Assembly: GCF_051903065.1 (NCBI RefSeq)
Contig: NZ_CP178438.1
Origin: Escherichia coli
GTDB taxonomy: Bacteria; Pseudomonadota; Gammaproteobacteria; Enterobacterales; Enterobacteriaceae
DNA length: 64,000 nucleotides
Strand: one strand, 5' to 3'
Made by a program: the position numbers and the translations under genes. How positions within the stretch are numbered: the first letter of the stretch is position 1; each line of letters begins with the position of its first letter. The notes under the pieces are model-generated. The model searched no databases. It was not told where the DNA came from and worked only from the letters and a program-made list of their open reading frames with translations. Shown here in pieces: positions 12,243 to 27,744 of this stretch.

Positions 12243-14324
12243 ATGAAAGGCCGCCTGTTAGATACTGTCCCGCTCAGTTCCCTAACGGGCGTTGGCGCAG
12301 CGCTTAGTAACAAACTGGCGAAAATCAACCTGCATACCGTGCAGGATTTACTCTTACACCTTCCCCTGCGCTACGAAGATCGCACCCATCTCTACCCCAT
12401 CGGAGAACTACTGCCGGGCGTTTATGCCACGGTGGAAGGCGAAGTGCTGAACTGCAATATCTCCTTCGGCGGTCGGCGGATGATGACCTGCCAGATCAGC
12501 GACGGTTCCGGCATCCTCACCATGCGCTTTTTCAATTTCAGCGCGGCAATGAAAAATAGCCTGGCGACGGGCCGCCGTGTACTGGCTTATGGCGAAGCAA
12601 AGCGCGGTAAATATGGTGCGGAGATGATCCACCCGGAATACCGCGTGCAGGGCGATCTCAGCACGCCAGAATTACAGGAAACGCTCACGCCGGTTTATCC
12701 AACAACGGAAGGCGTAAAGCAGGCCACGCTGCGTAAATTAACCGACCAGGCGCTGGATCTGCTCGACACCTGCGCCATTGAAGAACTCCTGCCGCCGGAA
12801 CTGTCACAAGGAATGATGACGCTACCGGAAGCGTTGCGCACTTTGCACCGCCCGCCACCGACGCTACAGCTTAGCGATCTGGAAACCGGGCAGCATCCGG
12901 CGCAACGTCGTCTGATTCTGGAAGAACTGCTGGCGCACAACCTCAGCATGTTAGCCTTACGTGCCGGAGCACAGCGTTTTCATGCCCAGCCGCTGAGCGC
13001 CAATGACACGCTGAAAAATAAACTCCTCGCCGCCTTACCGTTCAAGCCAACGGGCGCACAGGCACGCGTAGTGGCGGAGATCGAGCATGATATGGCGCTG
13101 GATGTGCCGATGATGCGCCTGGTACAGGGCGATGTAGGTTCCGGTAAAACGCTGGTCGCCGCCCTCGCCGCGCTGCGTGCGATTGCCCACGGCAAACAGG
13201 TGGCACTGATGGCACCAACCGAATTACTCGCCGAGCAGCACGCCAATAACTTCCGCAACTGGTTTGCACCGCTCGGTATCAAAGTGGGCTGGCTCGCCGG
13301 TAAGCAGAAAGGCAAAGCGCGACTGTCTCAGCAGGAAGCCATCGCCAGCGGTCAGGTGCAGATGATTGTCGGTACACACGCCATCTTCCAGGAACAGGTG
13401 CAGTTTAACGGCCTGGCGCTGGTGATTATCGACGAACAGCATCGTTTTGGCGTGCATCAGCGTCTGGCATTGTGGGAGAAAGGCCAGCAGCAGGGCTTCC
13501 ATCCGCATCAGTTGATCATGACCGCCACGCCGATCCCCCGCACGCTGGCAATGACGGCGTATGCCGATCTCGATACCTCGGTGATAGATGAGCTGCCGCC
13601 AGGCCGCACGCCAGTGACTACGGTCGCTATTCCTGATACCCGCCGTACCGACATCATTGACCGCGTGCGCCACGCCTGCATAACTGAAGGTCGTCAGGCG
13701 TACTGGGTTTGTACGTTGATTGAAGAGTCAGAGTTACTGGAAGCGCAGGCGGCGGAAGCTACCTGGGAAGAGTTGAAACTGGCGCTACCAGAATTGAATG
13801 TTGGCCTGGTACACGGGCGGATGAAACCAGCCGAGAAACAGGCGGTGATGGCGTCGTTTAAACAAGGTGAGCTACATCTGCTGGTTGCCACTACCGTTAT
13901 TGAAGTCGGTGTTGATGTGCCTAACGCCAGCCTGATGATTATCGAAAACCCTGAGCGTCTGGGTCTGGCGCAGTTACACCAGCTGCGCGGGCGCGTAGGT
14001 CGTGGCGCGGTGGCTTCTCACTGCGTGCTGCTCTACAAAACGCCGCTTTCTAAAACGGCGCAAATTCGCCTGCAAGTGCTGCGCGACAGTAACGACGGTT
14101 TTGTGATTGCGCAAAAAGATCTGGAGATTCGCGGCCCTGGCGAATTGTTAGGCACGCGTCAGACGGGTAATGCTGAATTTAAAGTGGCGGATTTACTGCG
14201 CGATCAGGCGATGATCCCGGAAGTTCAGCGCCTGGCGCGACATATTCACGAACGTTACCCACAACAGGCAAAAGCCTTGATAGAACGCTGGATGCCGGAG
14301 ACAGAACGTTACTCGAATGCGTAA
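12243..14324 (+). CDS. recG: ATP-dependent DNA helicase RecG
   Basis: 693 aa from MKGRLLDTVPLSSLTGVG...; helicase motifs (GDVGSGKT, DEQHRFG) seen. Confidence 0.95.
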   Translation: MKGRLLDTVPLSSLTGVGAALSNKLAKINLHTVQDLLLHLPLRYEDRTHLYPIGELLPGVYATVEGEVLNCNISFGGRRMMTCQISDGSGILTMRFFNFSAAMKNSLATGRRVLAYGEAKRGKYGAEMIHPEYRVQGDLSTPELQETLTPVYPTTEGVKQATLRKLTDQALDLLDTCAIEELLPPELSQGMMTLPEALRTLHRPPPTLQLSDLETGQHPAQRRLILEELLAHNLSMLALRAGAQRFHAQPLSANDTLKNKLLAALPFKPTGAQARVVAEIEHDMALDVPMMRLVQGDVGSGKTLVAALAALRAIAHGKQVALMAPTELLAEQHANNFRNWFAPLGIKVGWLAGKQKGKARLSQQEAIASGQVQMIVGTHAIFQEQVQFNGLALVIIDEQHRFGVHQRLALWEKGQQQGFHPHQLIMTATPIPRTLAMTAYADLDTSVIDELPPGRTPVTTVAIPDTRRTDIIDRVRHACITEGRQAYWVCTLIEESELLEAQAAEATWEELKLALPELNVGLVHGRMKPAEKQAVMASFKQGELHLLVATTVIEVGVDVPNASLMIIENPERLGLAQLHQLRGRVGRGAVASHCVLLYKTPLSKTAQIRLQVLRDSNDGFVIAQKDLEIRGPGELLGTRQTGNAEFKVADLLRDQAMIPEVQRLARHIHERYPQQAKALIERWMPETERYSNA

Positions 14325-23251: not shown

Positions 23252-23346
23252 GGAAGATCGTCGTCTCCGGTGAGGCGGCTGGACTTCAAATCCAGTTGGG
23301 GCCGCCAGCGGTCCCGGGCAGGTTCGACTCCTGTGATCTTCCGCCA
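23252..23346 (+). tRNA. selC: tRNA-Sec (selenocysteine tRNA, UCA anticodon)
   Basis: 95 nt sequence GGAAGATCGTCGTCTCCGGTGAGGCGGCTGGACTTCAAATCCAGTTGGGGCCGCCAGCGGTCCCGGGCAGGTTCGACTCCTGTGATCTTCCGCCA read directly; matches E. coli selC. Confidence 0.97.
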
Positions 23347-23645: not shown

Positions 23646-24422
23646 ATGGCATTAACCGATATCAAAGTGAAAACCGCAAAACCCAAAGACAAACCCTATA
23701 AGCTTGCTGATGGCGGCGGTATGTATCTACTGATTAACACTAATGGTTCTAAATACTGGCGCATGAAGTACCGCTTTGCTGGTAAAGAAAAGATGCTTTC
23801 TATTGGCGTATACCCCGATGTAACGCTAGCCGATGCTCGCGAGAAACGCAGTGAAGCCAGGAAACTCCTCGCTGCTGGAGGCGATCCAGGGGAGGCAAAA
23901 AAGGAAGAAAAAATCGCGCAGCAAATGAGTCTGCAAAATACGTTCGAGGCTATTGCTCGCGAATGGCACCAGTCAAAAGCCGATCGGTGGTCATTACGCT
24001 ATCGTGATGAAATCATTGATACCTTTGAAAAAGACATTTTTCCCTACATTGGCAAGCGCCCTATTGCCGAAATCAAACCAATGGAGTTACTGGAAGCACT
24101 GCGTAAAATGGAAAAACGTGGAGCTCTGGAGAAAATGCGCAAGGTCCGCCAGCGCTGTGGTGAGGTGTTCCGCTATGCAATTGTTACTGGCCGGGCAGAC
24201 TATAACCCAGCCCCCGATCTTGCCAGTGCTTTAGCTACACCGAAAAAAGTACATTTTCCCTTTCTTACTGCTAATGAACTTCCCCACTTCCTCAACGATC
24301 TGGCGGGTTATACCGGAAGTATAATCACTAAGACAGCTACTCAGATCATTATGTTAACCGGCGTACGAACACAAGAACTGCGTTTTGCACGCTGGGAAGA
24401 TATCGATTTTGAGACAAAATTG
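23646..24422 (+). pseudogene. P4-type (tyrosine recombinase) integrase, N-terminal about 259 codons only; truncated by IS insertion
   Basis: MALTDIKVKTAKPKDKPYKLADGGGMYLLINTNGSKYWRMKYRFAGKEKMLSIGVYPDV... is a typical P4-like integrase N-terminus; reading frame runs into the IS inverted repeat and stops; catalytic C-terminal half is absent. Confidence 0.85.
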
Positions 24423-25479
24423 GGCTTTGTTGAATAAATCGAACTTTTGCTGAGTTGAAGGATCAGATCACGTATCTTCCCGACAACGCAGACCGTTCCG
24501 TGGCAAAGCAAAAGTTCAAAATCACCAACTGGCCCACCTACAATAAAGCCCTCATCAACCGTGGCTCCATAACTTTCTGGCTGGATGATGAAGCTATTCA
24601 GGCCTGGTATGAGTCAGCAACACCTTCTTCACGAGGCAGACCTCAGCGCTATTCTGACCTTGCCATCACGACTGTGCTGGTCATTAAACGCGTATTCAGG
24701 CTGACCCTGCGCGCTGCGCAGGGCTTTATTGATTCCATTTTTTCTCTGATGAACGTTCCGCTACGCTGCCCGGATTACAGCTGTGTCAGCAGGCGGGCAA
24801 AGTCGGTTAATGTCAGTTTCAAAACGCCCACCCGGGGTGAAATCGCACACCTGGTAATTGATTCCACCGGGCTGAAGGTCTTCGGTGAAGGCGAGTGGAA
24901 AGTCAAAAAGCATGGCCAGGAACGCCGCCGTATCTGGCGTAAGCTGCATCTCGCCGTTGACAGTAAAACACATGAAATCATCTGCGCTGACCTGTCGCTG
25001 AACAACGTTACGGACTCAGAGGCCTTCCCCGGGTTAATCCGGCAAACCCACCGGAAAATCAGGTCAGCCGCCGCCGATGGCGCTTACGATACCCGGCTAT
25101 GTCACGATGAACTGCGGCGTAAGAAAATCAGCGCGCTTATCCCTCCCCGAAAAGGTGCGGGTTACTGGCCCGGTGAATATGCAGACCGTAACCGTGCAGT
25201 GGCTAATCAGCGAATGACCGGGAGTAATGCGCGGTGGAAATGGACAACAGATTACAACCGTCGCTCGATAGCGGAAACGGCGATGTACCGGGTAAAACAG
25301 CTGTTCGGGGGTTCACTGACACTGCGTGACTACGATGGTCAGGTTGCAGAGGCTATGGCCCTGGTACGAGCGCTGAACAAAATGACGAAAGCAGGTATGC
25401 CTGAAAGCGTGCGTATTGCCTGAAAACACAACCCGCTACGGGGGAGACTTACCCGAAATCTGATTTATTCAACAAAGCC
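24423..25479 (+). mobile_element. IS903-like insertion sequence (IS5 family), 1057 bp with 18 bp terminal inverted repeats
   Basis: Left end GGCTTTGTTGAATAAATC at 24423-24440 and its exact inverse GATTTATTCAACAAAGCC at 25462-25479; single DDE transposase ORF inside. Confidence 0.88.
24500..25423 (+). CDS. IS903-family DDE transposase
   Basis: ORF ...AKQKFKITNWPTYNKALINRGSITFWLDDEAIQAWYESATPSSRGRPQRYSDLAITTVL... with DDE-type motifs (DSTGLKV, ADGAYDT); start uncertain (GTG at 24500 or upstream TTG at 24455). Confidence 0.85.
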   Translation: MAKQKFKITNWPTYNKALINRGSITFWLDDEAIQAWYESATPSSRGRPQRYSDLAITTVLVIKRVFRLTLRAAQGFIDSIFSLMNVPLRCPDYSCVSRRAKSVNVSFKTPTRGEIAHLVIDSTGLKVFGEGEWKVKKHGQERRRIWRKLHLAVDSKTHEIICADLSLNNVTDSEAFPGLIRQTHRKIRSAAADGAYDTRLCHDELRRKKISALIPPRKGAGYWPGEYADRNRAVANQRMTGSNARWKWTTDYNRRSIAETAMYRVKQLFGGSLTLRDYDGQVAEAMALVRALNKMTKAGMPESVRIA

Positions 25480-25767
25480 GGATTTCATCTGAACAACGGC
25501 CCACAGGCCGATCGACTTGCCGACCTGGAAAGAATGCTGCATCTGTTCAGCGGCAAACCGATCCCCGACAACCGGGAAAACATCACTATTCATCTGAATG
25601 AGCACATCCGGTCTGTTCAGGGTAAAGAGTGCTATGAAGATGAAATGTTCAGCATCAGATACTTTAAGAAGGGCTCCGCGCACATCACGTTCAGGAAACC
25701 AGAACTGGTTGATCGGCTAAATGATATTATAGCCAGACACTATCCGGAAATGTTACCTTCACAATAG
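25480..25767 (+). pseudogene. Orphan 3' fragment of an unidentified island gene, open from the IS edge (C-terminal 95 codons)
   Basis: Frame is open from the first base after the IS right end (GFHLNNGPQADRLADLERMLHLFSGKPIPDNRENITIHLNEHIRSVQGKECYEDEMFSIRYFKKGSAHITFRKPELVDRLNDIIARHYPEMLPSQ*); no upstream start or RBS context; family not recognised. Confidence 0.4.
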
Positions 25768-25899
25768 AGTACTAAGAATTGATTCAATTATGTATTTTAG
25801 CTTCATTCCTTCATGCAAAATCATTTGGGGGTTCTTATGGGGGTTACTCATTTATCCAACACATACAAATTATTTAAGATCAATGCATTAATACTTATA

Positions 25900-25922
25900 T
25901 TCGACTCCTGTGATCTCCGCCA
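25900..25922 (+). repeat. Imperfect direct repeat of the selC 3' end (attR-like island boundary)
   Basis: ttcgactcctgtgatctccgcca matches the tRNA 3' end ttcgactcctgtgatcttccgcca (23323-23346) except for one missing T. Confidence 0.75.
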
Positions 25923-26559
25923 AAATGCCTCTCCTGACGTTCTCCAACCCCTTGTAATACTGTCAATCCAGATATTTTCTACTGCTCAATATTCAATCGG
26001 CTTCAGGAATACCTGGTCTAAGGTTTTGTGATGGACGATGAGCGGCTGAAGAATCCGCCTGTCGGTTCTTCTGTCCTCGAACGCATCCGCGATATTCACG
26101 CCAGTATGCGCCGTGTTTATTTGCAGGTGATTTGCCCCCCTGCTGACTCTCAGCCAACTGTATCGCCATTAAGGTGAAGATGTTGTTTTACTCGCCCCAG
26201 AACACCCTTTTTTATACGACTATTCTATTTCTTTAACCGCTGGCGAAAAAAAACTGACTATAAACTTCACCAATAATCAGACTGCCATCAAGATTAATTT
26301 GTTCATTTAATATATCAAATCAACTTGTTTTATTTTTACTATCAAAAATAGCTCATTGCCTTACTATAATTAATATATAAATTCGGTAATTAATTCTTAA
26401 CATGCTTTTACTAATAATCTCAATTGCTGGCCCTATAATATTGCGCTAGCATTGCTTTCTGGTTGTATCAGCGATACTCAAAAATTCTTAATACAATACT
26501 CATTCGACTGGTACTTATTTGTAACTCAGTTATATTTTTTCGCCCGGTGATTCAGAAGA

Positions 26560-27744
26560 ATGCAAAAAACGGCTACCACTCCATCAAAAATACTTGATCT
26601 CACTGCCGCGGCATTTTTACTTGTCGCCTTTCTGACGGGTATTGCGGGCGCTCTTCAGACTCCTACCCTAAGTATATTCCTCGCAGATGAACTGAAAGCC
26701 CGTCCTATAATGGTAGGTTTTTTCTTCACCGGTAGCGCTATTATGGGAATTCTGGTCAGTCAATTTCTGGCAAGGCACTCCGATAAACAAGGCGACCGTA
26801 AATTACTGATTCTGCTATGTTGCTTATTTGGAGTGCTGGCCTGCACGCTTTTTGCGTGGAATCGCAACTACTTCATTCTCCTCTCAACGGGCGTACTTCT
26901 GAGTAGTTTTGCTTCCACCGCAAACCCGCAAATGTTCGCCCTCGCCCGTGAACACGCCGACAGAACAGGCCGTGAGACGGTCATGTTCAGTACATTTTTA
27001 CGTGCTCAGATCTCGCTTGCCTGGGTTATCGGGCCACCGCTCGCTTATGAACTGGCAATGGGATTTAGTTTTAAAGTGATGTATCTCACCGCTGCCATCG
27101 CATTTGTTGTTTGCGGACTGATAGTCTGGTTGTTTTTGCCATCAATACAAAGAAATATTCCTGTCGTTACCCAACCCGTAGAAATTTTACCCTCCACCCA
27201 CAGGAAGCGGGATACGCGGCTACTTTTTGTGGTCTGTTCAATGATGTGGGCGGCGAATAATCTCTACATGATAAATATGCCGCTATTTATTATTGATGAA
27301 CTGCATCTAACCGATAAACTGGCTGGAGAAATGATTGGTATCGCTGCCGGTCTGGAAATTCCGATGATGTTAATCGCAGGCTATTACATGAAACGTATTG
27401 GCAAGCGACTATTAATGCTCATTGCTATCGTGAGTGGAATGTGTTTTTACGCCAGCGTACTCATGGCGACGACTCCGGCGGTTGAGCTGGAATTGCAAAT
27501 TCTTAATGCCATCTTCCTTGGTATTCTCTGTGGTATCGGCATGCTTTATTTTCAGGACTTGATGCCTGAAAAAATAGGCTCTGCGACAACGTTATATGCA
27601 AATACTTCACGCGTCGGCTGGATTATCGCCGGCTCTGTTGACGGAATTATGGTTGAAATCTGGAGCTACCATGCGTTGTTCTGGCTGGCGATAGGGATGT
27701 TGGGTATTGCGATGATTTGCCTGCTGTTTATTAAAGATATTTAG
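26560..27744 (+). CDS. setC: Sugar efflux transporter SetC (MFS)
   Basis: 394 aa MQKTATTPSKILDLTAAAFLLVAFLTGIAGALQTPTLSIFLADELKARPIMVGFFFTG... matches SetC. Confidence 0.92.
   Translation: MQKTATTPSKILDLTAAAFLLVAFLTGIAGALQTPTLSIFLADELKARPIMVGFFFTGSAIMGILVSQFLARHSDKQGDRKLLILLCCLFGVLACTLFAWNRNYFILLSTGVLLSSFASTANPQMFALAREHADRTGRETVMFSTFLRAQISLAWVIGPPLAYELAMGFSFKVMYLTAAIAFVVCGLIVWLFLPSIQRNIPVVTQPVEILPSTHRKRDTRLLFVVCSMMWAANNLYMINMPLFIIDELHLTDKLAGEMIGIAAGLEIPMMLIAGYYMKRIGKRLLMLIAIVSGMCFYASVLMATTPAVELELQILNAIFLGILCGIGMLYFQDLMPEKIGSATTLYANTSRVGWIIAGSVDGIMVEIWSYHALFWLAIGMLGIAMICLLFIKDI

Follow-up and report, generated by a model that had tools for sequence, protein, structure and literature searches.

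An intact copy of the insertion sequence IS903B is located a short way downstream of the tRNA-Sec gene (selC), in the interval from yicJ to setC, in the 64,000-nucleotide stretch of Escherichia coli chromosome analysed here (the window), and the two 9-bp sequences that flank it are unlike one another. The locus therefore raises the question of what event, or series of events, left the element with no target-site duplication and with a truncated gene on either side. It is one of the classical sites at which genomic islands integrate, selC being the target. The features on which the argument depends are as follows.

23252..23346 (+): tRNA-Sec gene (selC), the island integration site (ARAGORN, anticodon tca; RefSeq annotation of strain 23CRST027)
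23323..23339 (+): attL core, 17 nt within the 3' part of tRNA-Sec (perfect direct repeat TTCGACTCCTGTGATCT)
23646..24422 (+): truncated P4-type tyrosine integrase gene, codons 1–259 of 394 (ORF list, Pfam, PGAP)
24423..25479 (+): IS903B, complete, 1,057 bp (perfect 18-bp inverted repeats, 100% identity to annotated copies)
24423–24440 (+) and 25462–25479 (−): left and right inverted repeats (IRL and IRR), the IS903B termini
24500..25423 (+): intact gene for the IS903B transposase, 307 aa from a GTG start (Pfam domains)
25480..25767 (+): 3' remnant of a DUF4942 gene, last 95 of 281 codons plus stop (Pfam, alignment with strain 33-6)
25900..25916 (+): attR core, repeat of the tRNA-Sec 3' end at the right edge of the island (17/17 identity to 23323–23339)
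26000..26161 (+): fragment of a rhuM pseudogene, interrupted by a stop codon (annotated in the RefSeq records of 23CRST027 and 33-6)
26560..27744 (+): setC, the nearest core gene on the right-hand side of the island (ORF list, annotation)

The initial annotation had placed the element at 24414–25488. It is indeed present there, but the insertion sequence proper runs from 24423 to 25479 and the wider span adds 9 bp of flanking DNA on each side. The terminal repeat GGCTTTGTTGAATAAATC occurs exactly twice in the 64-kb window, in inverted orientation and with 0 mismatches in either copy (0.03 matches expected by chance), which bears out the description of its 18-bp ends as perfect; the same search located no second IS903B copy within the window. 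The transposase matches the Pfam domains DDE_Tnp_1_5 (2.9e-40) and DDE_Tnp_1 (5.9e-33), and the exact 307-residue protein is recorded in thousands of assemblies. At the nucleotide level all 1,057 bp of the element are 100% identical to copies that many enterobacterial plasmids carry under the annotation 'IS5-like element IS903B' and to chromosomal copies, and show 0 mismatches to the two IS903B copies of strain ECNB21-M121. In its length, its perfect inverted repeats, its single 307-aa DDE transposase and its nucleotide identity it agrees with the known IS903B of the IS5 family (IS903 group). Judged by its sequence it is IS903B itself, more than merely IS903-like, and it looks functional. The sole difference from other copies is the lack of a 9-bp target-site duplication, which is a trait of this copy's history and not of IS903B as an element.

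The flanks in question are ACAAAATTG on the left (24414–24422) and GGATTTCAT on the right (25480–25488), which differ at most positions; that the two are unlike had been reported from the window. Their relationship becomes evident on comparison with the IS-free islands of E. coli strains 33-6 and 58-3, from broiler chickens in China. Both strains carry 1,223 bp of the left flank and 1,081 bp of the right flank at 100% identity to the window and without the insertion sequence, and in the IS-free island the flanks lie exactly 9,642 bp apart, with order and orientation kept. The breakpoints in 33-6 fall at 14223/14224 and 23865/23866 of the reference locus (L002), so that the missing segment is L002 14224–23865. 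The first base that differs between the 33-6 island and the insertion sequence is t versus G on the left and g versus C on the right; because both flanks are collinear with the island right up to the IS termini and the next base differs, the breakpoints are unambiguous to the base. For the same reason a shift of the element's boundaries that would restore a duplication can be ruled out. The retained flanks are thus collinear with an uninterrupted reference in which they are separated by the DNA that is missing here, and this comparison with an intact island, the check that had been set beforehand, shows that the locus is almost certainly the product of an IS903B-associated deletion of 9,642 bp from a P4-integrase island of about 11 kb at selC.

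The DNA present in 33-6 and absent from the window holds the sequence for the C-terminal third of the integrase, the gene of a TPR protein and a small ORF with a frameshift. It also includes genes for a phosphoethanolamine transferase and for an outer membrane protein, an H-NS-like pseudogene, acuR, fragments of PglZ and antirestriction genes, radC, yeeT, the genes of a YeeU-family antitoxin and of the CbtA toxin, DUF5983, DUF957 and the DUF4942 gene as far as codon 186. What had been described as an unknown amount of island cargo can therefore now be given as about 9.6 kb in the best-matching reference. The closest relative by flanking identity, ECNB21-M121, has the left part of the 33-6 island, and an ancestor of the 33-6 type, with a loss of about 9.6 kb, is therefore the best estimate. 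The size of the selC island varies among strains with identical flanks, the flank matches lying about 11 to 53 kb apart, and the ancestor may for this reason have carried more than 9.6 kb.

The remaining DNA is a stub of about 2.6 kb in which both attL and attR are retained. The attR repeat runs on as ...CCGCCA, matching the end of the tRNA, and the tyrosine integrase gene beside the tRNA together with the direct repeat at the far edge are those of a tRNA-associated island of the P4-integrase type. The integrase itself is incomplete: its reading frame continues for 4 codons into IS903B before reaching a stop, PGAP labels it 'missing C-terminus', and of its Pfam domains Arm-DNA-bind_3 and Phage_int_M are complete but the catalytic Phage_integrase domain (PF00589) is represented by positions 2–54 of 172 only. 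An intact form of 394 aa is present in strain 33-6. The initial annotation was right that the 3' end of this gene is gone; the portion removed is the C-terminal third (135 of 394 codons, including most of the catalytic domain) and not the 3' half. On the other side of the element, the DUF4942 remnant covers positions 105–190 of 190 in the Pfam model (E 4.2e-28) and keeps the reading frame of the intact 33-6 gene, whose 3' end it matches at 100% identity. ORFs and Pfam matches alike thus agree with the view that the left flank lies inside an integrase gene and the right flank in the tail of another gene.

CP4-like P4-integrase islands at E. coli tRNA genes share the tRNA attachment site with its 17-nt repeat. 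They have an integrase with arm-binding, central and catalytic domains and a radC-yeeT-yeeU-cbtA-DUF5983-DUF957-DUF4942 module, and this typical right-end module ending in DUF4942 is present in the selC island of the intact relative. The window differs from such islands in that only the stub is left, all of the cargo is gone and the integrase is without most of its catalytic domain, because of which the stub would be incapable of self-excision. The rhuM fragment, found beyond attR on the side of setC, falls outside the island as it now stands; it was probably left behind by an earlier element at selC and belongs to the context of the locus, separate from the deletion event.

The significance of a missing duplication depends on how regularly IS903B makes one. 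Ten loci with the identical transposase were sampled, corresponding to nine distinct sites, and a perfect 9-bp duplication is present at six of the nine. The three sites without one are L007, L009/L011 and L013, and of these L013 lies about 5 kb from another sampled locus, L012, in one genome. A plasmid copy 100% identical to the window element is flanked by the duplication CATTCAAAC, and the copy in the yehB usher gene of 23CRST027 has ATACCACCA on both sides. The statement that IS903 normally duplicates 9 bp therefore holds. Copies with no duplication are nonetheless common, those examined adjoin truncated genes, and rearranged copies are a sizeable minority for IS903B. A lineage whose elements routinely went without duplications had been named as the finding that would speak against a deletion, and the duplicated yehB copy shows that this is not such a lineage. 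Because IS903B normally makes 9-bp duplications, in this lineage as elsewhere, the missing duplication in the window calls for a second event.

The lineage in question is that of 23CRST027, from human faeces in Ecuador, which over 50 kb is separated from the window by 2 substitutions and 1 indel. The same structure at selC is found in two independent complete assemblies, 23CRST027 and 23CRST031. There are 20–22 IS903B-matching places per chromosome in these two genomes, as against a collection median of 1–3 per genome, which indicates an expansion of IS903B in the clone, here represented by two complete genomes and the window. Two of the 23CRST027 copies, those at selC and yehB, were inspected.

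If the 9.6-kb segment had been moved and not lost, its ends should be found joined to IS903B elsewhere. A chimeric query, made up of the 5' part of the DUF4942 gene with 9 bp, the insertion sequence, and the 3' part of the integrase gene with 9 bp, was compared with 5,426 complete E. coli genomes. In none of these, 23CRST027 and 23CRST031 included, was IS903B joined to the integrase 3' part, and in none was it joined to the DUF4942 5' part at the window position; two exact-pattern scans of metagenome contigs likewise found neither reciprocal junction. Matches to the DUF4942 5' part and the insertion sequence in YZ22MPE54, 162.2, XDL and M15 are coincidental, since the record coordinates place IS903B near, and not in, a complete DUF4942 gene. 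The absence of reciprocal junctions across the 5,426 genomes and the metagenome contigs implies that the DNA was lost and neither inverted nor translocated. The search for complementary halves at another IS903 copy, which the first reading of the locus had proposed, thus leaves the deletion standing. A precursor in which IS903B carries a 9-bp duplication at either junction with the rest of the island intact was also absent from the 5,426 genomes and the metagenome contigs.

The initial annotation had offered either an adjacent deletion or recombination between two IS copies. The deletion itself is supported by the above, and both routes yield an identical final sequence. As the specific route we favour a two-step adjacent deletion, to which we would give about an even chance. 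The first step would be an ordinary transposition of IS903B into one of the two present junctions, at integrase codon 259 or at DUF4942 codon 186. The same copy would then have entered the other site through intramolecular transposition of the replicative (cointegrate-type) kind, leaving one insertion sequence joined to the new target and releasing the intervening DNA as a non-replicating circle that would have been lost. The expected outcome is a single element with unrelated 9-bp flanks, within a stub made up of attL, the 5' two-thirds of the integrase gene, the insertion sequence, the DUF4942 tail and attR and presumably unable to excise itself. We infer this order of events, as no intermediate genome was found.

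The two-step route is favoured on account of the literature, in which adjacent deletions are described as common for IS903 and as dependent on replicative transposition of the cointegrate type (PMC11708052), and of the long-term evolution experiment (LTEE), in which 14/14 examined IS-associated deletions were adjacent deletions from a pre-existing copy at one junction (PMC11708052). A deletion abutting one insertion sequence with no duplication is the textbook IS903 footprint (PMC11708052) and is the arrangement seen in the window. The IS150 deletions of the LTEE and an IS5 deletion in E. coli C (PMC11708052) similarly consist of a single insertion sequence amid a deletion with no duplication; those events were seen arising in the laboratory, whereas the window holds the end product in natural isolates, in which the steps cannot be counted. 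Also counting for the two-step route are the element itself, which is complete, has an intact transposase and is identical to active-looking copies elsewhere, the presence of at least 20 IS903B places per chromosome, and two duplication-less deletions (at selC and yehA) in ECNB21-M121, which are described below. The IS903 target motif in the form cited from PMC2577343, WTTYA-N9-TRAAW, was considered as a guide to which junction was hit first and proved not to be diagnostic, both junctions fitting that form of it weakly, at 2–3 of 5 positions per half-site, a poor fit that also counts against the reading favoured here.

The same product could have arisen if two directly oriented copies of IS903B, one in the integrase gene and one in the DUF4942 gene and each with its own duplication, recombined in a RecA-dependent manner with deletion of one copy and 9.6 kb. 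We regard this as possible but, on balance, doubtful. Recombination of this kind predicts exactly the product observed, with the left flank from the first copy and the right flank from the second, and inter-IS recombination is a recognised cause of absent duplications (PMC11708052). The lineage is moreover rich in identical IS903B (at least 20 places), the sister strain ECNB21-M121 has an independent IS903B insertion in the island, and the DUF4942 site is apparently a preferred target, with a junction in strain EC596 just 1 bp away. Set against this, two insertions in the same orientation would be needed within 11 kb at a density of about one copy per 225 kb, a third event would be needed besides, and no genome with either the single or the double insertion is present among the 5,426 complete genomes or the metagenome contigs.

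Deletion and insertion might instead have been simultaneous, a new IS903B having been linked to two positions 9.6 kb from each other, or taken up at a break during the resolution of a deletion, and the failure to find an intermediate in the 5,426 genomes and the metagenome contigs is what such a single event would leave. For E. coli C a one-step mechanism has been hypothesised that involves an element of the IS5 family (IS903 subgroup), and the same paper describes an observed case of an insertion sequence accompanied by a 62-kb deletion (PMC11708052); three more copies that lack duplications and replace DNA are known to us from this work, at selC and yehA in ECNB21-M121 and at serX in EC596. 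We nevertheless consider a one-step origin improbable: missing intermediates are weak evidence given the sparse sampling of the clone, the classical two-step routes account for all of the observations, and the mechanism is hypothetical, with the authors of PMC11708052 themselves allowing a two-step reading. If it were true, the copy in the window would be a natural example of it, as would the three others just named.

Inversion or translocation through a distant IS903B, with the complementary halves elsewhere in the genome, has many copies available for recombination, but it is very improbable in view of the retained flanks, which are ordered and oriented as in the intact island where an inversion would have altered them, and of the 5,426 genomes, none of which has IS903B joined at these positions to the integrase 3' part or to the 5' part of the DUF4942 gene. 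An assembly artefact, or a simple insertion whose duplication was mis-called or has decayed, is an a priori possibility only and can be given a negligible chance, since the flanks match the IS-free island base for base to the IS ends at points 9,642 bp apart and the structure recurs in two independent complete assemblies, to one of which the window is identical over 50 kb but for 2 substitutions and 1 indel.

An IS903B-associated deletion, by whichever route, also has close parallels in related strains. Over the 25 kb of flanking sequence the closest genome is that of ECNB21-M121 (100.0% identity), in which the left part of the island is as in 33-6, comprising the integrase, TPR protein, small ORF and phosphoethanolamine transferase genes. 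Here an IS903B copy of identical sequence and the same orientation (L005 7001–8057) replaces L002 17254–24811 (7,558 bp), with flanks CCGTCAATA and GCTGGCCCT and hence no duplication. The deletion begins within the phosphoethanolamine transferase gene and ends about 135 bp upstream of setC. Neither arrangement can have been derived from the other, each keeping island DNA that is missing from the other; the two deletions would be either independent or the outcome of divergent erosion from a common earlier copy within the region where the deletions overlap.

The second duplication-less copy in ECNB21-M121, at yehA in the yeh fimbrial operon (L017 302–1358), replaces 634 bp. The yehB copy of 23CRST027 (L019 1969–3023) is a simple insertion at a position that differs from that of the ECNB21-M121 yeh copy. 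IS903B is found in or beside yehA-yehB in 18 genomes, which suggests that this pair of genes is a regional hot spot for the element.

A further junction comes from the serX island of EC596 (L003 8001–9341), where the right end of IS903B abuts a DUF4942 paralog about 94% identical to that of the window at a point 1 bp from the window junction. The letters across the junction read ...AAAGCC followed by GATTTCATC in EC596, as compared with ...AAAGCC followed by GGATTTCAT in the window (25462–25790). The EC596 element has the window orientation and no duplication, and its left flank, AAGGTTGTT, falls where a GGDEF-domain gene ends. That two independent junctions lie within 1 bp of each other suggests that DUF4942 genes are a preferred target of IS903B. 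A common junction module of IS903B and DUF4942 shared with the Citrobacter plasmid pCFR-4109 was rejected, the plasmid copy being a simple insertion with its duplication present, in a distant DUF4942 protein and at a position that is not homologous.

The phenomenon is an already known one, a textbook IS-mediated deletion by a known element in public genomes whose gene fragments are annotated as pseudogenes. What the locus documents is how, in a single E. coli clone rich in IS903B, a small selC island was cut down to a fixed stub that can no longer excise, with the loss of a phosphoethanolamine transferase, an outer membrane protein, acuR and a cbtA/yeeU toxin-antitoxin pair as cargo; it is a small natural data point on IS-driven genome reduction, of little import beyond bookkeeping. 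For annotation, the integrase and DUF4942 fragments are to be recorded as pseudogenes and the insertion sequence as intact. The selC island has been eroded repeatedly in other strains, by IS1 as well as by IS903B: it is cut by IS1 at other positions in the unrelated strains MB30, C3728, ECCNB20-2 and Z142-3 (L006 4004–4701), and truncations by IS1 in several strains imply that IS-driven erosion of the island recurs.

The RefSeq annotation of 23CRST027 labels the transposase of its selC copy 'frameshifted', whereas that of the window copy is intact. The site of the frameshift is a CCCC run at about 25020–25035, in which 23CRST027 has one C fewer (window GGCCTTCCCCGGG versus GGCCTT-CCCGGG). The yehB copy of the same strain measures 1,055 bp, and both this and the frameshift are probably homopolymer errors of long-read assembly.
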